Virus record (IMG/VR): IMGVR_UViG_2671180417_000010
Location: 1 to 17,035 of that record
Length of the DNA: 17,035 bases
DNA from: a virus
Lineage: Duplodnaviria; Heunggongvirae; Uroviricota; Caudoviricetes
Strand: one strand, 5' to 3'
In this document: positions 1-17,035 of the stretch, piece by piece
How the letters are laid out: every line of letters begins with the position of its first letter
How positions within the stretch are numbered: the first letter of the stretch is position 1
Made by a program: the position numbers and the translations under genes
The notes under the pieces: model-generated
What the model was told of the DNA's origin: nothing
The model's input: only the letters and a program-made list of their open reading frames with translations
The model's database searches: none

Positions 1-152
1 TACAACCCCGGACGGCAGAGCTCGCATGCTTTTTGGTTCCGGCTCCACCAGTATTCTGCCGTTATGGAATGCTGACATACATAACTTATTTCACATAACA
101 CGTTGATTTAATTAAATAATTTTCACCGCAAAAAGTGCCAAAAATCGCAAAA

Positions 153-185
153 TGACTACACCAGTGACTACACCGTTCGGTGCAC
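153..185. repeat. Left copy of terminal direct repeat (TGACTACACC x2 followed by GTTCGGTGCAC); candidate att junction
   Basis: 153..185 TGACTACACCAGTGACTACACCGTTCGGTGCAC against 15491..15523 TGACTACACCAGTGACTACACCGATCGTTGCAC: 31 of 33 identical, same orientation, about 15.3 kb apart. Confidence 0.4.
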
Positions 186-190
186 TGTAT

Positions 191-208
191 GAAACAACGT
201 GGAACAAA
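191..208 (+). promoter_or_regulatory. Two 10-bp-phased GAACAA-type units (GAAACAACGTGGAACAA) next to the left terminal repeat
   Basis: Same unit as the arrays at 7651..7680, 13911..13930, 14143..14188 and 15535..15554. Confidence 0.4.
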
Positions 209-286
209 TAGACACAAGAAATATACAGGCGGATCATCTTTCCAGGGGGAAGCGCACCAATTCATGAGGGGCGTTAATGTCGATAT

Positions 287-546
287 GGGGATCCCCACCT
301 ACCGGAATTTTTTTCCGGTTAAACGTTAATCAGGCTGGTGGGCTTTACCTGTTCGGTAGGTGTTATGATTATCGTAATACCTTTCCCCCAATGGGGTAAA
401 AGCATCAACCGTAACGAAAGTCGTTATGGTTGCCACTGATACCCCAAATTTGGGTATCACGAGTAAGCCCCAAAATCTGGGTGTTACTCTTACTACCCAA
501 ACTACGGGTAGTTTCCGTAGTTTCATGGTCGAGTTGCAGATCTGCA
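287..546. repeat. Cluster of palindromes in the non-coding left end: GGGGATCCCC (287..296), hairpin ACCGGAA-T5-TTCCGGT (301..319), CCCCAATGGGG (385..396), ACCCCAAATTTGGGT (442..455), CCCAAAATCTGGG (468..481), CCCAAACTACGGG (496..508), TTGCAGATCTGCAA (533..546)
   Basis: Read directly. Four related CCCAAA-N-TTTGGG half-site pairs spaced about 26-57 bp apart. The overlapping ORFs (86..298, 326..556, 426..686) have non-protein-like composition. Confidence 0.45.
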
Positions 547-804
547 ACTCCCCCATTAACCACAGGCGAATTTCCGCCTTCGGTCATTCCTTAATCATCT
601 GCGTAATCATAATGATTATTCAGCAAGCGCAATTTTGCGCTTTGCTTAAAGTTCAGCGAGTTACCGCGCCGACTTCCTCAAATTGAGGTTTCCGAAAATA
701 TCAGCGGGTTAGCGATTAAGCTGACCATTAATTAAACTGCGAAAATGTCGTAGTTGTGAGGGGTGTAGCCAACCCATTTTTGGGCCGTCGGGAATATCAA
801 CCAG

Positions 805-1086
805 TTACCGCCGCAACCGCTCCGGCTTCTTCCAGTGGTACGTTATTTTCTCCTTCTCCCGATACATCTCCACGCGGCGACGGTAGGCCAGCAACTCAAG
901 AACTCTGGTTCGTATGTTGCGCATATCCACGCCATTAAGTTCTATACCATCACGGCGCATCACCTCAGCAACAACACGCGCATAGTTTTCGGCTGTCACG
1001 CTGTCCGGCAGCGTGGCCTGTTCGTCAGCCTGCTGGCTGATTCCGGCAACGCGGCGGATTAATCCCGTTATTTCGGCTTCTGTCAT
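805..1086 (-). CDS. Hypothetical protein (93 aa) immediately downstream of terL
   Basis: ATG at 1084..1086 preceded by GAGGT. Starts 14 nt after the terL stop. Protein-like charged/amphipathic composition. No recognisable motif. Confidence 0.45.
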   Translation of the reverse strand: MTEAEITGLIRRVAGISQQADEQATLPDSVTAENYARVVAEVMRRDGIELNGVDMRNIRTRVLELLAYRRRVEMYREKEKITYHWKKPERLRR

Positions 1087-1099
1087 GCTGCTGACCTCA

Positions 1100-2761
1100 T
1101 TACACCCCGCTAAATTCTTCCAGTTTCTGGCGGTGGCTGTCGCTTATATCAAAAGCAAAATCCTCATGCTCTGCCTGGAATGTACCAAACGCCATCAGCG
1201 CCGCCACGCTCGGGTCTATCTTGTTCGGTGATTTTTTCTTGTTCGGCTTGATATTGGCGTTCGCGTCACTCTGCATCACGACGTTACTCATCGACCAGGA
1301 CAACACCGGATCGCCACGATGCACAATCACCCTGCGGTTAACAAAAACTTCGAACGATTTCGCCGCCGGACTGAATCTGAGGTAGGTTTGCGGGAACGGC
1401 TCCACCTCAAAACCTGCCCCCTGTAATTGCGTTCTGAGATGCGTGGCGTTCCACGTATCAAAGCCCACCAGCCTGATATTAAATTTCTCCGCGTCCTGCA
1501 TGATGTCATCTCTGATCCGGTCGTAATCAATGCAGTCGCCAGGCGTTGTGCGTATCCAGCCTGCTTTAGCCCACTGACGATAGATGGCGCGGTTTTTATT
1601 GGCGGGGTTCTGTAGCTGGAACTCCGGCAGATAATGACGGGAAACCAGCATAATGGTTTTACCTACCGGAAAGGCATAGCACACGCTGGAAATATCGCTT
1701 GTGGATGATAAATCCAGCCCCGCGTAACACTCCTGGCCGTGTAAATCTTCCTCTGTGAACGTTCCGGCACACTCAGCCCATGCGCCGTTACCCATCCACG
1801 GGGTAGCCCCCTGGCACCAGATATTAAATCGCTTTGTCATCATCTCCACCCACTGCGACGGAATACCCCGCGCTTTCTGGATGGTTGAGGCCAGTTTTTC
1901 ACGATCCACGGAAACATCAATATTAGGGTTCGCCTTTATCCACATCGCCGGATCATCAACCTCGTTTTCGTCGTCCAGTTCGTAAATCAGTACAAAAATT
2001 GAATCGTTGACCTCTTCGCCGTCCAGGATCTGGCAGCAATAATCATAGTGCTGCTTACAGGCTGAAACGACGTTACTGCCTGATGTGGTAATAGCAAATA
2101 ACAGCCCTTCGGGACGTGCGCCCATCCCCAGCTCAAGCGCGGAATAAACGCCGTTATCGGGGTGCAAGTGGTATTCGTCCACGATGGAAAGGCTGGGGTT
2201 TGTTCCCTCGATGGTTGCCGCTTTTGCTGCCAGCGGCTTTAACAGGCTGTTGCTTTTCGGGTGTATCACCTTATGCGCCTGAATATTCACCCGCCTGCGT
2301 AACGGTCGGGATAAAAGGCACATCTGACGCGCATCATCAAAGACGATCCGCGCCTGGTCACGGCTCACCGCTGCGGTGTAGATATCCTGCTGACCGTTCT
2401 CCATAATCAGAAACCAGTTAGCCAGAATCGCGGCGGTCGTTGATTTCGCATTTTTGCGCGGCACTTCGATAAAGGCGCTCGTATATTTGCGCCGTCCGGT
2501 GGCCTTAACCTTAAAGCCGAGAATGCACGCAAAGGCGAACTGCTGCCACGGCTCCAGCTCAATGGGTCTGCCACGCATCGGCCCTTTTACGTGCGGGCAC
2601 ACCCTGGAAAAGGCAATAAACCGATCCACAACCTCACGATCGAACGTGTAAAGGGGGCTTTTAAGGTCCGAAAAGTACCGTTTAACGGCCTGTTTCAGCC
2701 GTTTACAGGCCGGAATTTTGCCCGTTTTTACGTCTTCTGCGTACTTATTCCAGGCGGTCAA
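1100..2761 (-). CDS. terL: Terminase large subunit (HK97-type)
   Basis: 553-aa ORF. The ORF-track start at 2761 is a TTG preceded by GAGGA; the next in-frame Met is residue 62. N-terminus MTAWNKYAEDVKTGKIPACKRLKQAVKRYF and overall length are typical of phage large terminases. Overlaps terS by 17 nt. Confidence 0.85.
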   Translation of the reverse strand: MTAWNKYAEDVKTGKIPACKRLKQAVKRYFSDLKSPLYTFDREVVDRFIAFSRVCPHVKGPMRGRPIELEPWQQFAFACILGFKVKATGRRKYTSAFIEVPRKNAKSTTAAILANWFLIMENGQQDIYTAAVSRDQARIVFDDARQMCLLSRPLRRRVNIQAHKVIHPKSNSLLKPLAAKAATIEGTNPSLSIVDEYHLHPDNGVYSALELGMGARPEGLLFAITTSGSNVVSACKQHYDYCCQILDGEEVNDSIFVLIYELDDENEVDDPAMWIKANPNIDVSVDREKLASTIQKARGIPSQWVEMMTKRFNIWCQGATPWMGNGAWAECAGTFTEEDLHGQECYAGLDLSSTSDISSVCYAFPVGKTIMLVSRHYLPEFQLQNPANKNRAIYRQWAKAGWIRTTPGDCIDYDRIRDDIMQDAEKFNIRLVGFDTWNATHLRTQLQGAGFEVEPFPQTYLRFSPAAKSFEVFVNRRVIVHRGDPVLSWSMSNVVMQSDANANIKPNKKKSPNKIDPSVAALMAFGTFQAEHEDFAFDISDSHRQKLEEFSGV

Positions 2762-3101
2762 GCTCGTCCTCTTCTTCTGTTTCCGGTGGATTTTTACGGC
2801 GGCTTATCGGGTCAAAACCGAGCAAGGAGGCCATTTTTATCATCACTCTTTCCGCGTCGGATTTCGCGCTTAATGCGGGGTTTCTGCTCTCTCCGCCCTG
2901 ACTGTTAACAATGCTGAACCCGCGCGCCGCAAGGTCTGCGACGGCTTTCCGGTATATCGAGTAATTGACGCAATACAGTTCCAGATTGCTCCAGTCGGCG
3001 GGAGTCAGGTCACCCCGTTCCGCAAGCTGCCGCGATTTTTCCCGCCACTGCTTCACGGCGATATCATCCAGGTAGGCGGGGGCTTTCGGTGGTCTTGCCA
3101 T
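2745..3101 (-). CDS. terS: Terminase small subunit (P27-family-like)
   Basis: 118 aa, ATG at 3099..3101. Sequence LDDIAVKQWREKSRQLAERGDLTPADWSNLELYCVNYSIYRKAVADL...LLGFDPISRRK matches the conserved pattern of P27-type small terminases. Sits directly upstream of and overlapping terL. Confidence 0.8.
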   Translation of the reverse strand: MARPPKAPAYLDDIAVKQWREKSRQLAERGDLTPADWSNLELYCVNYSIYRKAVADLAARGFSIVNSQGGESRNPALSAKSDAERVMIKMASLLGFDPISRRKNPPETEEEDELDRLE

Positions 3102-3389
3102 ACTTATTTTTTCGCCAGATTATTTTTCAAAAAATTCCCGTGCATAAAAATTTGAGGAGGCGGTCGGTGCCCGGCGGGGTCGGGTTTGTCCTGAAAACGC
3201 CCCCCACCCCGTCATACAGCCTCATCAGCGATTGCGGAAACATTCCATAACCTCGCGGTCACGGTCGGTTAATCGCTTCGCTGTGATGCGTTCTGCGCGT
3301 CCTGACGCTTTATCTTTATGCCCTGTTTCCTGTGTCTTCATGCGTCACGCTGCCTTATAAGTCCACGGATAAGGCGGTTTTGTTCCCGC
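3102..3389. other. HNH-terS intergenic region; candidate cos site
   Basis: 288-bp non-coding gap with a GC-rich segment (GGAGGCGGTCGGTGCCCGGCGGGGTCGGG) and repeated GGTCGG/CGGTC motifs. In HK97-type cos phages the cohesive-end site lies between the HNH gene and terS. The exact cos position is not determinable from sequence. Confidence 0.3.
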
Positions 3390-3830
3390 TCATTCATCAG
3401 CGTCATACATCCAGTTATTGCGGTTAGCGGCCCGTTCTTCCTCTTCACGAAATCCACCTGCGGCACGCTTGCTTTTTGTTGCCGGATCAAGCCATTTCGT
3501 TTTCTGGTTATGACACGCCTGACACAATGGTTGATGGTTCCATTCGGGCCAGAAGAGAACATCATCACCGCCATTAATCGGGATAATGTGATCCACCACC
3601 ACGGCGGGCGTATATATCCCCTTCTCAAGGCATCGCACGCATAACGGGTTTTTACTCAGATACATGGCGCGGTATTTGTCCCACTGTCTGGAGTACCCAC
3701 GCGCGCGGCGGTGTCCTCGTCTGGCATCCTCTGCACGCCATGCCGCCCGCCTGTGCTCCTCACACTTGCCGGATTTAACGCGCCTGTTACAGCCTGGTTC
3801 TGTGCATCGTCTTAATGGTTGCCACGGCAT
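3390..3830 (-). CDS. HNH endonuclease (packaging-associated)
   Basis: 146 aa. N-terminal Cys cluster (CTEPGCNRRVKSGKCEEH) and HNH core VDHIIPINGGDDV...CQACHNQKT. Start ATG overlaps the connector stop (TAATG-type junction). Confidence 0.85.
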   Translation of the reverse strand: MPWQPLRRCTEPGCNRRVKSGKCEEHRRAAWRAEDARRGHRRARGYSRQWDKYRAMYLSKNPLCVRCLEKGIYTPAVVVDHIIPINGGDDVLFWPEWNHQPLCQACHNQKTKWLDPATKSKRAAGGFREEEERAANRNNWMYDADE

Positions 3831-4126
3831 CAGTACACCCCCACATCACGGTAAGCCGTCCAGAGCGCGCCAATCGTCATGGGTACGCGCGTTTTTGCGT
3901 TATCCGCTACCAGCTGGCGATTCTCGTACAGGTGAGCGATAAACATCATGCAGCCAATCTTTATGGCTGGCGTGAACTCCAGCCCGTCATCAAAGCGCCT
4001 GCCTATATGTATCTGGCACGCCTCAAGCGATGCGGCAATGTATCCGCTGATTAACTGGTCTTCCTCGTCGCCATCGATGCGGCAATGGAGTTTCACTTCT
4101 TCCAGGGTGATAAGTTCTTCTGTCAT
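3830..4126 (-). CDS. Head-tail connector protein (phage gp6-like)
   Basis: 98 aa. N-terminus MTEELITLEEVKLHCRIDGDEEDQLISGYIAASLEACQ matches the characteristic gp6-like opening (LxxAKxHLRIDxDxDDxLI). ATGA overlap with the upstream gene. Confidence 0.7.
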   Translation of the reverse strand: MTEELITLEEVKLHCRIDGDEEDQLISGYIAASLEACQIHIGRRFDDGLEFTPAIKIGCMMFIAHLYENRQLVADNAKTRVPMTIGALWTAYRDVGVY

Positions 4127-4461
4127 TTTTCCGCGCCCTCACGACAAAGAATTTCAAGGCGTGTCCTGGCGGCATCCGGCAGCGGCTGCCCGATGATATT
4201 CAGTACACGCCCCGCCAGCGGCCCCGTATTGACCTTTATCCGGCTGGTGGCGTTGATGTCCTTCCTGTAGCGTATCCATATCCTTACCGTTCCAGTCGCC
4301 AGTTCTGCACCCGATGAAATGGCCTCCTTGCTGCTGATCATGTTCACGCTTGCCCAGAGTGTGTGACCGTCCACCCACGTTTCGAGTATTTCGCCGGTTA
4401 TATCCCTGGTCTGTTTCAGGGTCTGAATCGTTACCCTGTCACGCAGTCGCCCTATGTTCAT
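4123..4461 (-). CDS. Head closure / head-tail joining protein
   Basis: Start set at ATG 4459..4461 (MNIGRLRDRVTIQ...), which forms an ATGA overlap with the portal stop and has GAGGGAG upstream. The ORF-track start at 4503 would overlap portal by 46 nt. Motifs RDRVTIQ, GEILETW, WASV..., IRYRKDI, LEILCRE resemble the head-tail joining family. Confidence 0.7.
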   Translation of the reverse strand: MNIGRLRDRVTIQTLKQTRDITGEILETWVDGHTLWASVNMISSKEAISSGAELATGTVRIWIRYRKDINATSRIKVNTGPLAGRVLNIIGQPLPDAARTRLEILCREGAEK

Positions 4462-5669
4462 TCCGGTTTTTCTCCCTCGCTGATTTTTACTTCCTGTTTC
4501 CATGCCTGGCTGAACTCATCACCACCATCACGCGGGGACAGCCCTTCACGTTCGCGGGCTTCGTTCGGGCACATAACGCCGGATTTGATGCCGCGTTCAT
4601 AGGTGGCAAAGCGTTCGCCAGGTGTGGCCCGTAACAGGTCCGCGCTGTCAAACTCCACCTGATACCGGATACCAGGTACAGGCGAGGCCACCAGCAGGGC
4701 GTTTTTTATCTGCTGCTCAAAGTTCGCCAGCCACGGGCGCATCGTCATGGTGAGAAATGCGCGGCTTGCCTCGCTGAAATTGCTGTAGGTGCTGTTGCTG
4801 TATTCCTGCAAAAAAATCGGCGAGACGTTGAACATTCGGGCGATGTCTTCAATGGTGAAGCGACGGGAGGCCAGCCATTCAGCATCCTGATTACTCATGC
4901 CCAGCTGCTGATAGCTCATACCCCCTTCAAGGATGGGCGTTTTTCCGGCGTTTCTGGCCCCTTTGTAGCGTTCCAGTGCGGCTAATGCCTGTTTACCCTT
5001 CACGCCGTCCAGCCACTCGCCTGACGTGATAACCCCTGCCGCCATCATGCCATCACGCATCACGCTCGCGCCGTGGCGTTGTTGGGCCAGCCCAAGCCCC
5101 AGCGATTCGCGGCAGATGGTTACAGGTGAGCGCCCCATAAAACCGTCATCCGTGGAGTAACGAAGGTGGAGAACCTCCCACGGTAAATAGTTGCGGGTGT
5201 TTCCGGTGTAGGCGTCAGTGATGCAGTAGCGCCAGTTATGCTCACCTGTCTGCTCCACGTTCACCGACTGCGGCGGGTAAGGATGTAAAGCCACCGGAAA
5301 ACCATCACGCCCCCACTGAATCACCGCATAAGCATTACCGTTTAACAGGCAGTGGCGGATCATCATTCGCTTAAACTGGTAGGGGGTTTGCCATGCGTTC
5401 GGGCGCTCGTTGAGGATGTGATCGACCGGATGAGAATCAAGCCACTCTCGGGCCTCCTTCCCCTTCTCATTGCGTACCAGGTACAGGTAACACGGCATGG
5501 TAGCCACCGCCTCAGAGATGACCGTGACGGCGTTCATGACGGCGGGCAGTGATTCCGCTGTCCCCGATGATACGTACTCACCCGCCCCCGTGTTCGATGT
5601 GCCAGCCAGCGCCATAAACTCATCAAGCGTCATGCTGCGCTGCTCTTTTTTTCTTCTGAAAGGCCACAT
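4458..5669 (-). CDS. Portal protein (HK97 family-like)
   Basis: 403 aa. ATG at 5667..5669 preceded by GGGGG, one nt after the protease stop. Size and sequence character typical of HK97-type portals; acidic C-terminus. Confidence 0.8.
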   Translation of the reverse strand: MWPFRRKKEQRSMTLDEFMALAGTSNTGAGEYVSSGTAESLPAVMNAVTVISEAVATMPCYLYLVRNEKGKEAREWLDSHPVDHILNERPNAWQTPYQFKRMMIRHCLLNGNAYAVIQWGRDGFPVALHPYPPQSVNVEQTGEHNWRYCITDAYTGNTRNYLPWEVLHLRYSTDDGFMGRSPVTICRESLGLGLAQQRHGASVMRDGMMAAGVITSGEWLDGVKGKQALAALERYKGARNAGKTPILEGGMSYQQLGMSNQDAEWLASRRFTIEDIARMFNVSPIFLQEYSNSTYSNFSEASRAFLTMTMRPWLANFEQQIKNALLVASPVPGIRYQVEFDSADLLRATPGERFATYERGIKSGVMCPNEAREREGLSPRDGGDEFSQAWKQEVKISEGEKPE

Positions 5670-5670
5670 A

Positions 5671-6228
5671 TCACACCCCCGCTAAATCCGCCCACCAGCG
5701 GCGATTATCCGCACGAGGCATTTTTTCAGGGTGCTGCTCATACAGGGAACGGCGGGCCAGCTCCACGCCGGAATCAGGGTAAGCCGGTACGGATGTCACG
5801 GTAATTTCGTACAGTTCCGCTATCAGTACAGTACGCACACATGGATCGACTGTCGTATCCCATACATCCTTACGGGAACGAAAGCCAAAGCTCATGCCCG
5901 AGATGTCACCACGTTTAACCAGTTCGATAACGTCCCGCCCTGTGCTGGTATCCGGTGGGATCAGTTCAAAACGTAACCCTGTGTCATCCTCTTCCAGTCT
6001 CAGCGTACCGGAACGGGTGCGCCCCAGTAACATGCTGTGGTCATGCTCATACAGGCCGCGAACGTCATTACCCACCGCAAGCCATTCAGTAAACGCCCCC
6101 CGCTGGAATTTTTCGTAAAATTCGCCCCATAACAGTTCTGAAAGGTTATCCCAGCGAACAACGTAGCCCGTAAGCGTGTTGCTGCCGCTGGTGGTGATTT
6201 CCGATGACCGGATTTCCATACTCATCAT
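5671..6228 (-). CDS. Prohead maturation protease (HK97 / peptidase S78-like)
   Basis: 185 aa. ATG at 6226..6228 with AGGTGA upstream. Motifs GYVVRWD, YEHDHSMLLGRT and GDISGMSFGF resemble the HK97 prohead protease His/Ser region. Confidence 0.75.
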   Translation of the reverse strand: MMSMEIRSSEITTSGSNTLTGYVVRWDNLSELLWGEFYEKFQRGAFTEWLAVGNDVRGLYEHDHSMLLGRTRSGTLRLEEDDTGLRFELIPPDTSTGRDVIELVKRGDISGMSFGFRSRKDVWDTTVDPCVRTVLIAELYEITVTSVPAYPDSGVELARRSLYEQHPEKMPRADNRRWWADLAGV

Positions 6229-6282
6229 AATTTTTTCACCTGTAAAACAGAGAAGGGGCTTTTTAGCCCCTTCGGTGTGCTG

Positions 6283-7440
6283 TTAATCGTCGTCCTGCGG
6301 CAGTTCCAGAATCTTTATAGCGTTCGAATCCACCACGCCACCGCCTAAATATTTCTGCGTGAAAATTTTGATAAAGCCCGGCTCTGTCAGGTTGTCCGGT
6401 CTGGTGCGCACGCCCGTTTCATGATCAACGATGTAATAACCGCGTTTGAAGTCACCCAGGGCGATAACGTTATCCGGCATAAATTCCAGATACTCCACCG
6501 GAAGCCCCAGCAACGTATCAGGATCACCCGCCTGTAAACGGTCGCGCCAGATGTAATCGCCGTTCGCGTTCTTCACCTTCTGAAGTTTTGCCGCCGTCGT
6601 GGAGTTAACCACCCAGACCGCGTTTTTGCGGTATTTTTTACGTAATGCAAATTTCAGGTCGATCAGCGGGTCCGCAGATGTCCACGCCAGAGATTCGGAA
6701 GGTTTAATTACCTGCAACGTACCAAAATCACGCTCTTTGTCGTTCTTCTCTGCACGGGGTACGGATAAAAAACCTTTTGCTTTTTTGTCACCGTCGCCCA
6801 CAACCAGATCGCTTTCTTCGGTTTCCGTGAAGGTGTCGCCAATCTCACCCGTCAGCCATGAAAGGATGTCCACATCGGAAAAATCCACGATTTCCTGTGT
6901 GGTGCGCGGGTACGCATAGACCGGATACAGCTTAATGCTCACCTCGTTAATCTGCGGGGTGCTGGTCTGTTCGCGTGCCTTACCCTCTTCACCGTGGTTA
7001 ACGGTCGCACCGCCAGCGGAAACAAGCTGCTTAAACTCGTTGCTGCTGATTTTCTTCACGGTACAGATGCGGCGCATGGTGGATTCATCCGCCAGCATTC
7101 GCATGATTTCGGTGTTCAGTTCAGGGATAACGGTATAACCACCATCAGCGGGAACGCCTGTACTTAATGCGCGGGTTTCACCGGTCAGAATGTAGTTGCG
7201 TAGTTCTGCGGGGTCAGTGGTCTGGCTGCTTTTACCTGGCTTGCTGCGCTCTTCGTCTGCAATGGCTTCAAGGCGGGAAATGTCTTTATCGAGGGATTCA
7301 GCTTTAGCGCGTAATTCGTCAAATTTTGCGCCCTCAGCATCGTTAAGACTGCGGTTTTCTTTTTCCGCGTTCTCCAGCATGTCGCGCATCTGATTTTTAA
7401 TGGCGGTTTTCTGCTGGCGTAATTCGATTATTCTCGGCAT
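6283..7440 (-). CDS. Major capsid protein (HK97 fold) with N-terminal delta/scaffold-like domain
   Basis: The ORF-track start at 7488 is a GTG lying inside an upstream hairpin. The first ATG is at 7438..7440 (MPRIIELRQQ...) with AGGA 8 nt upstream. N-terminal coiled-coil (IIELRQQKTAIKNQMRDMLENAEKENRSLNDAEGAKFDELRAKAESLDKDISRLEAI) plus C-terminal LLGLPVEYLEFMPD region typical of HK97-type capsid proteins. Confidence 0.8.
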   Translation of the reverse strand: MPRIIELRQQKTAIKNQMRDMLENAEKENRSLNDAEGAKFDELRAKAESLDKDISRLEAIADEERSKPGKSSQTTDPAELRNYILTGETRALSTGVPADGGYTVIPELNTEIMRMLADESTMRRICTVKKISSNEFKQLVSAGGATVNHGEEGKAREQTSTPQINEVSIKLYPVYAYPRTTQEIVDFSDVDILSWLTGEIGDTFTETEESDLVVGDGDKKAKGFLSVPRAEKNDKERDFGTLQVIKPSESLAWTSADPLIDLKFALRKKYRKNAVWVVNSTTAAKLQKVKNANGDYIWRDRLQAGDPDTLLGLPVEYLEFMPDNVIALGDFKRGYYIVDHETGVRTRPDNLTEPGFIKIFTQKYLGGGVVDSNAIKILELPQDDD

Positions 7441-7477
7441 AAAAAAAGTCCTGGGATTAAGTAAGGAACTCCAGGAC
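7441..7477 (-). promoter_or_regulatory. Hairpin plus U7 immediately upstream of the capsid start codon; the stem includes the capsid SD
   Basis: Minus strand reads GTCCTGG-(16 nt loop)-CCAGGAC-TTTTTTT-ATG. The 3' stem half CCAGGAC contains the AGGA Shine-Dalgarno. Seen directly. Confidence 0.45.
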
Positions 7478-7531
7478 GCGGCAAACACTCAACCGTTTTT
7501 CATAAGGAAATCAGCAATCGCACCGATCGTT

Positions 7532-7577
7532 TTCCCGCCTGGTAATGAATATTGGCGAGCACATTAACAGGCGGGAA
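7532..7577. promoter_or_regulatory. 16-bp imperfect inverted repeat (TTCCCGCCTGGTAATG / CATTAACAGGCGGGAA) with 14-bp spacer in the capsid-operon leader
   Basis: Arms at 7532..7547 and 7562..7577, one mismatch. Either a dimeric-regulator operator or a long RNA stem in the late leader. Confidence 0.45.
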
Positions 7578-7650
7578 AGTGGCCCCAGCGTCCTGGCACC
7601 ACGGGCGAGAATACTCATGATTCAGTTCGGGTAAAATATGCCGATCCTGT

Positions 7651-7680
7651 CAGTGAACAACGTGGAACAACCACGAACAA
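7651..7680 (+). promoter_or_regulatory. Three perfect 10-bp-phased GAACAA units (cagtGAACAA cgtgGAACAA ccacGAACAA); candidate activator-binding array for the capsid/late operon
   Basis: Read directly. Located just downstream (in the transcription direction) of the early-operon terminator and about 210 bp upstream of the capsid start. Confidence 0.5.
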
Positions 7681-7689
7681 ATAATTTAC

Positions 7690-7720
7690 AAAAAATGACA
7701 AAAAGCCGGATTTCTCCGGC
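7690..7720 (-). terminator. Rho-independent terminator after the PerC-like gene
   Basis: Minus strand reads GCCGGAGAAATCCGGC (6-bp GC stem, 4-nt loop) followed by TTTTTGTCATTTTTTGT. Hairpin 7705..7720 starts 8 nt after the stop at 7728. Confidence 0.65.
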
Positions 7721-14235: not shown

Positions 14236-15465
14236 TTATTTTCTTCTGGCTACTGGTAGCGTGGTTACGTTTTCATGTGTTCCCGCCAGTATCCCTAACC
14301 GCTCCGTCCACATATCCAGCGCATTGCGTTTAGCATCCAGATAACGGGAATGATTATAAACTCGCTGCATTCCTGGCATCTGGTGGCCTGTAAGCTGCTC
14401 CACGACATGCGGATCAACGCCTAAATCGTTCAGCATGGTTGTAAAGGTGCGCCGGATGTCATGCAGTGACCAGTGAGGATGATTAAGCCTCCTGTGCGCT
14501 AATCTTCCATACTGCGATACGCTGGCCTCCTGTTTCACTTCCCCCAGCAATAAGCCCGTGTGCCTGTTCTGCTCCACCAGCTGCGTGACGAACGGCAGGA
14601 TCGCTTCCGGTATGGGCCGGAATATTGCGACCTTCGTTTTGCTGTGCTCCTTCGGAACGGTCCATAGCATTTCCGTAAAATCCCACTCCCCGATCTCCGA
14701 TAACCTCAGTTCTACCGTTCTGGCTCCGAAGACAATCAGGAGGCGGATTAACGCGACGTAGTAAGGGGAGAATATTTTTTTGTCCAGTGCCTGCAATAAT
14801 TCGCCAAGTTCTTTGTTACTTAAGACACGTTCGCTTATATCCGGTTTTTTCCCAACGTCCGCCACGTTCAGATCGTCCAGAACGTTGCTGATTGCATAGC
14901 GCCGCCTACGGCAGAACTTAAGCGCCTGTTTGCACGCCTGTAGCACGAATCCGGCAGTAACAGGCGTTCGCTTTGCCACCTGGTCAAAACAGGCCAGCCA
15001 GTGCCGTAGCTCGCATTTATCCAGCGGCATAGCACCAATCTGCTGTATTACGTGATTATTAAGTCGCCTTTTCAGGGCGATATAATCCACGCGGTTTTCC
15101 TTTACGTAATACTCAAGCCAGTAGGTGAGCGCATCGCCAACCGTTACCGGCTTTAACGCTTCCTGTACGGTGTAATTAAGCTCATGACGTGGATTTTTCC
15201 CCTCTGCCAGCCATGCGCGACACTGGGCGGCTTTTTCCCTGGCTGATTTCAGGCTCAGATCAGGATAACTTCCCAGCTTAATGCGTTCGGGTCGTGTCTC
15301 CCTTCCCGTTCCGGCCCTGTATGTGAAATACCAGGTCAATTTCCCTGATGTTAAATATTTCACGCTCAGGTTTCCGCCATCACTATAAAACGTGTTTTTC
15401 TCCGCTGGCTTACCATGAAGTTTCCTTAGCAAGGTATCGCTCAGTTTGTTCATTGCTCTGCTCAC
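14236..15465 (-). CDS. int: Site-specific tyrosine integrase (P4 / CP4-type)
   Basis: 409 aa. The ORF-track start at 15465 is GTG with GGGGG 6 nt upstream; ATG alternative at 15453. Catalytic-domain motifs include WSLHDIRRTF (HxxR) and C-terminal GHQM...RVYNHSRYL (Tyr region). N-terminal region resembles an integrase arm-binding domain. Confidence 0.9.
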   Translation of the reverse strand: MSRAMNKLSDTLLRKLHGKPAEKNTFYSDGGNLSVKYLTSGKLTWYFTYRAGTGRETRPERIKLGSYPDLSLKSAREKAAQCRAWLAEGKNPRHELNYTVQEALKPVTVGDALTYWLEYYVKENRVDYIALKRRLNNHVIQQIGAMPLDKCELRHWLACFDQVAKRTPVTAGFVLQACKQALKFCRRRRYAISNVLDDLNVADVGKKPDISERVLSNKELGELLQALDKKIFSPYYVALIRLLIVFGARTVELRLSEIGEWDFTEMLWTVPKEHSKTKVAIFRPIPEAILPFVTQLVEQNRHTGLLLGEVKQEASVSQYGRLAHRRLNHPHWSLHDIRRTFTTMLNDLGVDPHVVEQLTGHQMPGMQRVYNHSRYLDAKRNALDMWTERLGILAGTHENVTTLPVARRK

Positions 15466-15490
15466 GTTTTACCCCCTCTTTACGAAAAAG

Positions 15491-15523
15491 TGACTACACC
15501 AGTGACTACACCGATCGTTGCAC
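15491..15523. repeat. Right copy of terminal direct repeat (TGACTACACC x2 + GATCGTTGCAC), 26 bp upstream of the int start; candidate att junction
   Basis: See 153..185; 31 of 33 identical. Confidence 0.4.
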
Positions 15524-15534
15524 AAAGGGCTACA

Positions 15535-15554
15535 ACGTGAAACAAGCTGGAACA
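15535..15554 (+). promoter_or_regulatory. Two 10-bp-phased GAACAA-type units (GTGAAACAA GCTGGAACAA) 70-90 bp upstream of int
   Basis: Read directly. Same orientation relative to its gene as the array at 7651..7680. Confidence 0.45.
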
Positions 15555-15722
15555 AGGAAAATCACAAATCTGTTGATAATCAAAAACATAATGCACAGCC
15601 TGAAACATTATGAAACAGCAAAAAACACTAAATGATAAAATGCTGTTATTGATTCACGGCCTGGCTTAACGATAACCAGACCGAGTTCCGGTACCAGAAC
15701 AGGTCGAAGTAATACCCGCACA

Positions 15723-16001
15723 TTACCTCCAGATCCGTTGCTGGAATGTGCGGGACGGACGCGCTGGCCGTTCTGAGTAAGGGAGCCTGACGGAGATTAT
15801 CCAGTGACGGTAGTCGAGGCTAAGGGCTTTTTTAACCTCGCATCCGCGCCTGCGGTAACACTGAATGAGCCATTCGGCCTGTTCTTCAGTGCATGGGGGA
15901 TGCTGGTACCAGTCAGATTTGAATGCGTGAAAACACCGTCCGCGCCTGCTGGCAAAGACGGCAGAATCATCAGAATTGTATAATTTGGTATCGTGCGCCA
16001 T
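15723..16001 (-). CDS. Hypothetical protein (about 92 aa) in the right flank
   Basis: The ORF-track start at 16082 is TTG and overlaps the hok terminator hairpin. ATG alternative at 16001 with weak SD. Trp/Arg/Cys-rich. No recognisable motif; could be spurious. Confidence 0.25.
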   Translation of the reverse strand: MAHDTKLYNSDDSAVFASRRGRCFHAFKSDWYQHPPCTEEQAEWLIQCYRRRGCEVKKALSLDYRHWIISVRLPYSERPARPSRTFQQRIWR

Positions 16002-16073
16002 CGGTTGTCTCTGCTGGCGCAGCAGGTGCCAGTTGTTCAGGCTGGCGTGCGAATTGTAAACCAGAATGCCAGG

Positions 16074-16100
16074 AAAAAACAAAACCCGCCGAAGCGGGTT
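16074..16100 (-). terminator. Rho-independent terminator downstream of hok
   Basis: Minus strand reads AACCCGCTTCGGCGGGTT followed by TTTGTTTTTT (hairpin 16083..16100, A-run 16074..16084 on the plus strand). Confidence 0.6.
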
Positions 16101-16168
16101 AAGTGCGGGTGCGTTGAGGATGCCTGATTCATCAGAGGTGGCGAGGGATTTCTCCCTCGCCGGGTCTC

Positions 16169-16324
16169 TTACTCCTCAGGTTCGTAAGCTGTGAAGACAG
16201 CGACCTCCGTCTGGCCGGTTCGGATTCGTACCTCGCAGAGGTCTTTCCTCGTTACCAGTGCCGTCACTATGACGGTGATACAGATGACGATCAGGGCGAT
16301 TAACATCGCCTTTTGCTGCTTCAT
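16169..16324 (-). CDS. hok: Hok/Gef-family type I toxin (small membrane peptide). The in-frame upstream extension to ATG 16381 corresponds to a mok-like frame.
   Basis: 51 aa: MKQQKAMLIALIVICITVIVTALVTRKDLCEVRIRTGQTEVAVFTAYEPEE. Hydrophobic helix followed by the conserved RKDLCE...TGQTEVAVF...AYE pattern of Hok/Gef toxins; closest by recollection to HokC (Gef). The 70-aa ORF 16169..16381 (MLDICRLASYAPKGKEKQA + Hok) resembles MokC organisation. Confidence 0.8.
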   Translation of the reverse strand: MKQQKAMLIALIVICITVIVTALVTRKDLCEVRIRTGQTEVAVFTAYEPEE

Positions 16325-16569
16325 AGCCTGCTTCTCCTTGCCTTTCGGCGCGTAAGAGGCTAACCTACATATGTCTAGCATGAAATTGGCCTCAGATTAA
16401 TGTTAGGCGTCTTGCAGGACGCGTAATGTTAACTGGGGCTTTTCTCTGTCTGCCTTACGGTGGCATGCCCGAGGCAGACAGCCTCAAGCACCCGCAGCAA
16501 TTCTACTTAACTCTCGCTTTACCGCAAACCGTTTTTACCCGATATGGGAATTCCCATATCGTAATGAAT

Positions 16570-16674
16570 TCAGTTCCCTAGTCGATCCATCAAAAACACA
16601 ACCAGGCAGTAAACGCCCACAACAGCAATAACAGCCAGCGCACCTTCTATTGCCAGTGAAATATCATCCGACAT
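16570..16674 (-). CDS. Candidate small hydrophobic membrane peptide (34 aa), below the ORF-track size cut-off
   Basis: GGAGGG SD 3 nt upstream of ATG 16672..16674. Translates to MSDDISLAIEGALAVIAVVGVYCLVVFLMDRLGN, a single predicted transmembrane helix. Not recognised as a named family. Confidence 0.3.
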   Translation of the reverse strand: MSDDISLAIEGALAVIAVVGVYCLVVFLMDRLGN

Positions 16675-16789
16675 ATTCCCTCCTTTGGTGTGAATCCCGG
16701 CGAACGTTTTTACCCCCACCGACAAATAACATATACTAAAAAATCAATAGCTATAGCAACGCCTGTAATTGCAAAGGCTTCAGGCCAGA

Positions 16790-16972
16790 TCATTGGCGCA
16801 CCTCCTGCGGCGGTTCTGGTAGCGGCATCCAGTCGGTTACATTGCGGCTCTGTGTTTCGAAAAATTCATCACCATTACGGACTACATCAAAAAACTCACC
16901 GTCTCGATATTGCGCATAAAGAACGAATGCGCCATCACATAAAATAATTACGTGCTGACCATCATCCGGCAT
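16790..16972 (-). CDS. Hypothetical small acidic protein (60 aa)
   Basis: ATG at 16970..16972 with an in-frame upstream stop inside the window. Protein-like composition (MPDDGQHVIILCDGAFVLYAQYRDGEFFDVV...). The overlapping plus-strand ORF 16690..16947 is His/Arg-rich and less plausible. Confidence 0.35.
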   Translation of the reverse strand: MPDDGQHVIILCDGAFVLYAQYRDGEFFDVVRNGDEFFETQSRNVTDWMPLPEPPQEVRQ

Positions 16973-17035
16973 TCGCTCACTACAGCTTATCCAACCATCC
17001 GGAGTTACCGGATAGTTGGTTGACGTTTCCGAGAT

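Follow-up and report, generated by a model that had tools for sequence, protein, structure and literature searches.

A hairpin-rich, mosaic 3' tail at the left end of a capsid-forming phage-inducible chromosomal island of Escherichia coli

In E. coli, the bacterial interspersed mosaic elements (BIMEs), repetitive extragenic palindromes (REPs) and repetitive IHF-binding palindromes (RIPs; IHF, integration host factor) are palindromic mosaics that lie after the last gene, that keep structure over sequence and that, in the case of RIP, carry an IHF box. Roles in mRNA 3'-end protection, in termination and in DNA architecture have been proposed for them. By analogy of architecture and location, these mosaics and the enterobacterial repetitive intergenic consensus (ERIC) elements may be seen as the closest analogues of the region described here, positions 287-660 of a 17,035-nt stretch of viral DNA (positions 1 to 17,035 of IMG/VR record IMGVR_UViG_2671180417_000010; the window in the following). 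Judged by its genes, the window is an E. coli capsid-forming phage-inducible chromosomal island (cf-PICI), as gene set and gene order match those of the capsid-forming PICIs of E. coli (preprint 10.1101/2022.09.08.507074). All long open reading frames (ORFs) of the window are on the minus strand, and 287-660 is part of a 730-bp non-coding stretch between a 93-aa gene (stop at 805), the last of the late operon, and the left junction of the island. From sequence comparison, this region is the middle of a hairpin-rich, mosaic 3' tail common to E. coli PICIs, and we tentatively favour a role as the structured 3' trailer of the late transcript.

Like the BIME, REP and RIP mosaics, the PICI tail is extragenic, follows the last gene of an operon and is made of palindromic units with kept pairing and variable combination. 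However, on inspection it does not resemble the REP consensus, it has no associated RAYT transposase, and its modules are limited to PICI tails (89 of 92 copies of a 123-bp module and 168 of 219 matches of a hairpin-plus-box unit, both described below) and not dispersed over the chromosome. The likeness to RIP, an IHF box beside the tail palindromes, is one of consensus match only, and inside 287-660 the boxes are degenerate. ERIC elements, or intergenic repeat units (IRUs), are imperfect palindromes of about 127 bp in transcribed intergenic regions; the module is 123 bp long, contains a long imperfect dyad (440-510), lies in an intergenic region that would be transcribed and is highly conserved from copy to copy. 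Unlike them it is present once or twice per island at a fixed relative position and is not dispersed; the likeness is one of size and architecture, and the module has no match in Rfam or in the literature searched.

The initial annotation, made from the letters of the window, described 287-660 as a dense palindrome cluster, and all elements that it listed were found in the sequence. The region holds 10 perfect inverted repeats (stem of at least 6, loop of at most 8), whereas 1000 shuffles that preserved dinucleotides gave 0.74 on average and never as many as 10. Sliding windows starting at 201-451 are the top palindrome outliers of the 17-kb window, with 54-75 summed stem pairs, where the median is 6 and the 95th percentile 22. 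GGGGATCCCC is located at 287-296, the hairpin ACCGGAA-TTTTT-TTCCGGT at 301-319, AAGCGCAATTTTGCGCTT at 625-642 and TTGCAGATCTGCAA at 534-547, where it forms the core of a perfect 20-bp palindrome, GAGTTGCAGATCTGCAACTC, at 531-550. Two descriptions had to be adjusted. The long-range inverted pair comprises 9 perfect nt (296-304 with 354-362), whereas the 11-nt arms as first written include one mismatch, and the pair is lost in relatives. The four palindromes of CCCAAA-N-TTTGGG type are present at about 385-397, 437-459, 468-483 and 492-512, but they are not one repeated motif: the centre of the second, CAAATT, is TTTATT or ATAATATTA in relatives while its stem GATACC/GGTATC is kept, and the third has a stem of only 4 bp.

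The claim that the region holds no convincing ORF was also confirmed. ORFs of 54-86 aa do exist, yet none matched a family in Pfam or PHROG, and their start codons (426, and 556 and 587 on the minus strand) lie in flanks that are not conserved among islands with the same module. No coding sequence is annotated in RefSeq at the equivalent of 287-660 in the closest relative. A 40-codon ORF with a good Shine-Dalgarno sequence at 277 was rejected, as it meets a stop after 7 codons in the O157:H7 island. Conservation across related islands had been set beforehand as a check, and pieces of the region are indeed conserved there; the region is also absent from the empty site L146. It is therefore neither private to this island nor part of the host chromosome.

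The tail can be divided into the following pieces:

97-434: shared block M1, which holds GGGGATCCCC, the 301-319 hairpin, a Chi site and the degenerate unit at 383-430
334-341, plus strand: Chi site GCTGGTGG, here in its extended form CAGGCTGGTGGGC
383-430, plus strand: degenerate hairpin-plus-box unit (CCCCCAATGGGG ... CATCAACCGTAAC), overlapping the hairpin CAACCGTAACGAAAGTCGTTATGGTTG (404-430)
433-555, plus strand: discrete 123-bp four-hairpin module, with hairpins H1 at 437-459, H2 at 461-489, H3 at 499-523 (alternative 492-512) and H4 at 531-550 (the perfect 20-bp palindrome)
559-584: decayed copy (21/26 nt) of the late-operon intrinsic-terminator hairpin, from a regular-expression match
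599-623, plus strand: CTGCGT-[AATCATAATGATT]-ATTCAG hairpin module
625-666, plus strand: unit U2, palindrome AAGCGCAATTTTGCGCTT and box TTCAGCGAGTTACCG, heading a tandem array of three units, each about 45 bp long
672-714, plus strand: unit U3, CCTCAAATTGAGG and GAAAATATCAGCGGGTTAGCG, outside 287-660 but in the same array
769-810, plus strand: unit U4, ACCCATTTTTGGG and GGAATATCAACCAGTTACC, overlapping the stop codon of the 93-aa gene

Each unit combines a short palindrome with a TCA(A/G)N4TTA box that comes after it at constant spacing, and the tail of the O157:H7 cf-PICI located next to phoQ (L002) contains about seven of them. In the hairpin module at 599-623 the stem is swapped for other complementary sequences in relatives (GGTCATTATGACC, GGTGATTTCCACC and others). 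Positions 440-510 of the 123-bp module can alternatively fold as a single long imperfect palindrome. The terminator copy at 559-584 retains no more than 4-5 bp of pairing and lacks a U tract.

Pairing in the units is kept while their sequence changes. At least 25 different perfect palindromes occupy one position in the unit family. In a 16-sequence alignment of one sub-family, four of the seven stem pairs vary on both sides, and one pair is GC, CG or UA but never unpaired. The covariation score of this alignment is 0.288 versus 0.099 in shuffles (none of 500 as high) and at most 0.169 in slid controls, where it has to be considered that the alignment register was chosen per sub-family, which favours structure somewhat. 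Within the 123-bp module, H1 and H4 keep their pairing through compensated changes in one or two pairs each, three in all, and the module as a whole has a fold z-score of -7.4, equal on both strands.

The pieces of the tail differ in their degree of conservation. Both the O157:H7 cf-PICI and the classical PICI EcCICFT073 (L003) carry M1 at about 90% identity; with the latter it is shared as far as 348, and with a third island type (L008) in part. Fourfold sites in neighbouring genes are equally similar (87%), and thus M1 shows no sign of special constraint. The 123-bp module is 94.3%, 92.7% and 86.7% identical to the copies in islands L004, L008 and L007, for which the fourfold sites of adjacent genes reach 67%, 76% and 60-79%, respectively. 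As far as these comparisons allow, the module is either under unusual constraint or has recently spread.

Of 5,426 complete E. coli genomes, 706 (13%) contain the module, 692 of them at full length, and the roughly 90 copies that were retrieved from records of IMG/VR and of E. coli represent 37 variants. In 89 of 92 copies it lies shortly downstream of a 93-aa gene, in one orientation throughout. Two of the remaining three are at the ends of fetched sequence, and the third (L063) follows a TerS-like last gene, indicating that the module tracks the end of the operon and not the 93-aa gene itself. In this IMG/VR contig (L063, 2445-5106) module and terminator follow the TerS-like gene with no 93-aa gene present, and an integrase gene lies just beyond; such a layout would be expected of an excised, circularly joined or tandem form. 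The ends of the module are identical in three different flank contexts, and its orientation relative to the late genes is constant in 70 distinct tails. The hairpin-plus-box units are likewise concentrated, with 168 in tails and 51 elsewhere in 1.45 Mb, many of the latter being an att-proximal IHF-type box or one other recurring conserved site. The module is optional, as it is absent from the O157:H7 and CFT073 islands.

Pieces of the tail recur in islands inserted at a prophage DUF968 gene, at tqsA, beside phoQ, clpS or thiM, or within a lambda-type capsid gene. They occur together with four unrelated packaging set-ups, namely an own HNH/TerS/TerL set, a DUF1441 protein with a protease-capsid fusion, another TerS, or none. 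Their order is variable: in the window it is M1, module, 626-666, 669-712 and gene, and in L008 it is M1, 669-712, 626-666, module and gene. L006 has an Abi gene in its tail, and in this island a gene separates the modules from attL. To judge from these arrangements, the modules travel with the end of the late genes and not with any other island module. In some cf-PICIs (L034 at 943-1501, also L014, L087 and L055) the module is present twice, on either side of a 318-bp cassette. This cassette resembles another origin of replication whose iterons are different (GCGGGTTA, in direct and inverted orientation about an AT-rich core). Of the 80 IMG/VR loci that one scan returned (L152-L227), about 30 break off precisely where the 93-aa gene ends, at its stop codon; they lack tail and attL, which looks like a boundary-trimming artefact and not like a DNA end.

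No phage record matched 86-804 in a distant-mode phage search, the plasmid database returned chromosomal look-alikes only, a scan of genome contigs for distant homologues gave one Shigella locus only, a protein scan of viral contigs returned only relatives of 83-99%, and in the tails without a module nhmmer detected no diverged form of it.

The Chi sequence GCTGGTGG is present in 14 copies at 334-14581, all within the 15.6-kb island, where 0.63 are expected and none of 200 shuffles had as many. This corresponds to about one Chi per 1.1 kb in both orientations, with the extended form CAGGCTGGTGGGC at 331, 1463, 8713 and 13419. Nearly all related tails contain one to five Chi sites each. Dense Chi may protect the linear or rolling-circle DNA of a satellite without a RecBCD inhibitor. 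Chi polarity around the module as the mark of a programmed end was considered and rejected, as the orientations are mixed.

The reading that we favour, without holding it to be established, is that of a 3' trailer of the late transcript. The tail consists of short stem-loop modules that are shared and reshuffled among E. coli PICIs by recombination, and these modules would act as nucleic-acid structures rather than as sequence-specific protein sites. Transcription of the minus strand would make the tail the untranslated trailer of the late (capsid and packaging) mRNA, where stacked hairpins could slow or stop read-through and could shield the mRNA 3' end from exonucleases. A block to read-through would insulate attL, the int gene, which is downstream in the excised circle, and the flanking DNA. 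Common sequences and Chi would in addition make the tail the site of island recombination and of uptake of accessory DNA. In most tails that carry the module, the stop codon is followed by the module, about 27 nt and then a canonical intrinsic terminator on the operon strand; in L004 this terminator is intact (4973-4948, minus strand) with an 11-bp stem, 8 GC pairs and a U-rich tail. As the terminator lies behind the module, the module is part of the late 3' untranslated region (UTR) in those relatives. Gram-negative PICIs are transcribed unidirectionally and carry accessory genes at their 3' end (PMC6092414), and together with the position of the terminator this favours a role at the RNA level. 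From this we infer that RNA would be the active form. The palindromes differ from each other and do not recur at promoters, which was also counted for a trailer. A structured RNA region beside att is known from sib/tI of lambda and from other hairpin regulators in 3' UTRs next to att, where the linkage to int differs between the integrated and the excised state as it does here; in the PICI, however, int is transcribed away from att and the tail is upstream of int in the circle. Since its sequence is too conserved for a mere hairpin, the 123-bp module probably has an additional specific partner.

Several observations weigh against the trailer. No intrinsic terminator was predicted on either strand of 287-660 or anywhere across 1-800, no hairpin in 287-660 is followed by a U tract, and in the island type of the window the terminator hairpin, itself decayed, is found on the side of the module that faces the gene. 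Of the four hairpins, RNAalifold retains just H1 and H4 (covariation term -0.11), the module being too conserved for a strong test. Mismatches in the stems amount to 20 G.T versus 24 A.C, and transversion mismatches are equally common, so that no wobble bias is seen for either strand. With no G-U bias and equal fold z-scores, neither RNA nor a particular strand is singled out as the active form. Template-switch correction can keep palindromes perfect without selection. Finally, conservation of the module far above neutral would be easier to reconcile with a regulatory RNA or a site of specific recognition than with generic hairpins.

This last point leads to a second explanation, to which we give a minor share of the probability: the 123-bp module could be a specific functional element, either a structured regulatory RNA or a cis-acting DNA signal, carried by PICIs as an optional cassette. 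As an RNA it could be a small RNA (sRNA) cut from the late 3' UTR or a processing platform for RNase III/E; as DNA it could be a signal read by a host, helper or satellite protein. An identity well above that of neighbouring fourfold sites, the sharp and constant boundaries in three flank contexts, the very stable fold, and an occurrence in 13% of complete E. coli genomes in spite of being optional all speak for such an element, as does the position directly upstream of an intrinsic terminator in most islands, which is the usual layout of sRNAs derived from 3' UTRs. However, the terminator is missing in the window's own island type, and the high identity could stem from recent recombinational spread instead of constraint. 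Rfam gave no match at gathering thresholds in the region, the sole match at E<5 being a spurious snoRNA; a tRNA scan of the region was negative as well. There is no predicted promoter for the module, one weak promoter-like site at 209-237 being the only prediction near the region, and no strand signal. A literature search by sequence strings found no paper containing the module sequence. Conceivably, though we regard this too as a minority view, the module, apparently undescribed so far, is a functional satellite element that is exchanged as a cassette and independently of the integration, replication and packaging modules.

Alternatively, the tail could work at the DNA level as an architectural array, in which IHF-type bending boxes at a fixed distance from extrudable palindromes, as in BIME/RIP elements, shape the island end into a nucleoprotein structure and so aid excision, replication or packaging. 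We consider this unlikely. Of 265 distinct palindrome contexts, 48 have the box TCA(A/G)N4TT(A/G) at 18-19 nt from the centre of the palindrome, and no other offset occurs more than three times, but the units were collected partly through the box pattern and the invariance of the box is therefore built in. A perfect match to the IHF consensus (WATCAANNNNTTR) is present in U4 at 795-807, and direct reading gives about four such matches in the tail of the O157:H7 cf-PICI; inside 287-660, however, the boxes are degenerate and none matches the consensus. The lack of strand bias is what would be expected of double-stranded DNA, and the embedded Chi sites would also agree with a function as DNA. Against this, order, number and spacing of the modules vary freely between islands, which makes a defined complex unlikely. 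Generic protein binding, for example of IHF at the TCA(A/G)N4TTA boxes of the neighbouring units, may nevertheless occur.

It is also improbable, in our view, that the tail is functionless recombination debris, composed of relics of gene ends, terminators and origin fragments at a hotspot for accessory genes. Several units keep the last codons of the 93-aa gene (GTTACCGCGCC), the order of the pieces is permuted between islands, some tails have taken in an origin-like cassette or an Abi gene, the conservation of M1 (97-434) does not exceed that of synonymous sites and the terminator copy at 559-584 is decayed, all as debris would predict. Mere debris would however not explain that pairing is kept through many independent changes, that the 123-bp module is far more conserved than neutral sites and that the orientation is constant.

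The initial annotation had interpreted the palindromes as a multi-site protein-binding region, with integrase sites, a terminase recognition region or operators as candidates. These have to be seen against the layout of the whole island, whose features are:

68-74: attL core AATGCTG, left island boundary, from a three-way alignment with the empty site L146
96-108, minus strand: IHF-consensus box AATCAACGTGTTA adjoining the core, one of only three WATCAANNNNTTR matches in the window
155-174, plus strand: two direct ACTACACC repeats, with a second pair at 15493-15512 on the attR side
805-1086, minus strand: 93-aa gene (phrog_1561), last of the late operon and constant neighbour of the tail
1100-2761, minus strand: TerL
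2745-3101, minus strand: TerS of the P27/Terminase_4 family
3390-3830, minus strand: HNH
minus strand: major capsid protein, protease and portal, then two connector genes
minus strand, between origin and capsid genes: SSB and a PerC-like gene
8806-9070: iteron origin
9105-11249, minus strand: primase-helicase
12374-12578: P4-type immunity RNA, with C4 antisense and a1/b1 targets (P1/P4-type)
14236-15465, minus strand: integrase

The heptamer AATGCTG of the core is repeated at 15639-15645 (attR), and homology to the closest relative, an island in tqsA, spans window positions 52-15650. The flanks of the window are the two halves of the DUF968 gene of a lambdoid prophage, and an uninterrupted copy of this gene (empty site L146, 1420-1560) fuses window positions 1-74 to 15646 onward, which places 287-660 inside the element, 213-586 bp from the core. 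The DUF968 junction of this island was found in none of the complete E. coli genomes in the collection. The host gene belongs to the nin region, with hokD/sok on one side (the sok antitoxin RNA with hokD at 16319-16493 in the flanking prophage) and rusA and the Q antiterminator on the other. The island is co-oriented with it, and early transcription of the prophage would need to traverse the entire island before reaching Q. Window positions 52-74 are identical to the tqsA site that the closest relative occupies. In the origin region (8770-9090), which lies downstream of the primase gene, a TATATATATA stretch is surrounded by GT(T/C)GTCCCA, present ten times and in either orientation, and an IHF-consensus box lies inside the origin at 8841-8853.

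That the palindromes are binding sites of integrase, Xis or AlpA in the attL arm is very unlikely. The region is less than 600 bp from the core and M1 adjoins the arm repeats, and like the attP arms of P4-type integrases the PICI tail is located near a core with an IHF box and direct repeats. Those features, however, are found at 96-174, left of the cluster, which starts at 287. ACTACACC occurs in the window only at 155, 167, 15493 and 15505 and is the sole repeat common to both junctions, so motifs shared by the two are confined to 155-174 and 15493-15512. The ACTACACC repeats are probably integrase arm-type sites; analogous paired repeats are present in other islands, where the box at 96-108 is also kept beside the core. 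An imperfect direct repeat of about 65 bp is present at both ends (150-215 and 15490-15560) and consists of two ACTACACC followed by GAAACAA, GGAACAA and AGACACAA-type repeats, which would probably be the sites of integrase arms and excision factor. The recombination features of attL extend to about 215. The tail modules, in contrast, are not bound to one att site: they occur with several att sites and arm motifs, in varying order, number and distance, and in L006 with an intervening gene. Arm sites would require a fixed geometry and a motif shared with attR, and neither is true of 287-660.

Just as unlikely is a cos of the satellite, recognised by TerS, TerL and HNH, in which the 20-bp palindrome would be the cleavage site. 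The perfect dyad at 531-550 is flanked by other sub-sites, the region lies at the end of the packaging module, and cf-PICIs have cohesive ends whose cos is not mapped in the two preprints consulted. The tail also resembles known cos regions (lambda, cos1/cos2 of EcCICFT073 and HNH-dependent phages) in that it is composed of several cis-acting parts, shows dyad symmetry and has an IHF-like box, with packaging genes close by. A terminase site should however accompany its terminase, and the O157:H7 cf-PICI beside phoQ encodes an identical TerS (WP_000113645.1) without 433-555 and with 556-804 rearranged; this island (L002) is probably of the EcCIEDL933 type. The module is conversely also present in PICIs with DUF1441 and a protease-capsid fusion, with other TerS types or with no terminase, so that it is tied to no terminase type, and every piece of the tail recurs in PICIs that lack this terminase. 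The tested cos sites of EcCICFT073 contain a lambda-like cosN (PMC6092414, PMC6739421), and both of its cosN matches are upstream of the 93-aa gene, on the side opposite to the tail. The lambda cosN (GGGCGGCGACCT, of lambda/phi80-dependent PICIs) was not found in the window with fewer than 3 mismatches, and matches with 3 mismatches are at chance level with none in 1-1100. No phage record matches the tail, and the ends of IMG/VR contigs near the module are inconsistent, falling at unit positions 16 and 50. In HNH-dependent cos phages, cos is located between hnh and terS. The corresponding spacer of the window (3102-3224) is GC-rich (GGGGTGGGGGGCG...) and then AT-rich. Among cf-PICIs with an overall divergence of about 14% it is 93-100% conserved, and in a relative it carries an annotated 60-aa ORF that is broken by stop codons in the window. 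By analogy, the cos of the cf-PICI would more likely lie here.

Operators of a dimeric regulator are scarcely credible: several short dyads do stand 26-57 bp apart, but their sequences are unrelated, their stems co-vary, relatives do not keep the common 'CCCAAA', neither a promoter nor a regulated gene lies nearby, and the 10-mers of the module recur in the island only as Chi contexts and as scattered single 10-12-mers at chance level.

Some further candidates were rejected. The module has discrete ends and hairpins at both of them, as a miniature inverted-repeat transposable element or an IS200-IS605-type element would, but all its contexts are PICI tails, its 5' neighbours (TCTT, GACG, GTTG) have no common motif and there are no terminal inverted repeats. 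The 93-aa neighbour as the binding protein found no sequence match in Pfam, NCBIfam or PDB, and its AlphaFold model of three helices (pLDDT 68) gave no Foldseek match better than E=1.5; it is also not an Rpp, since the DNA-reading residues R21/T22 are absent. A replication function of the region was discarded, the iterons of the origin (GTTGTCCCA) being confined to 8806-9070. An oriT, a partition site, an integron attC and a CRISPR-like array were considered from the anatomy and set aside on the grounds of missing plasmid homology, variable stems and no associated gene.

PICIs are under study both as vehicles for gene transfer and as engineered particles for delivery, yet their non-coding ends have been ignored. 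For the design of minimal or synthetic cf-PICIs, the palindromes at the left end should not be mistaken for cos or att. The tail would be the zone of recombination and cargo uptake of these islands, and it contains a small element that about one in eight complete E. coli genomes carries and that appears far more tightly constrained than the genes beside it. Should the module turn out to act as a recognition site or as a regulatory RNA, it would bring a further layer to satellite, helper and host biology; otherwise the region would be an ordinary structured 3' trailer.

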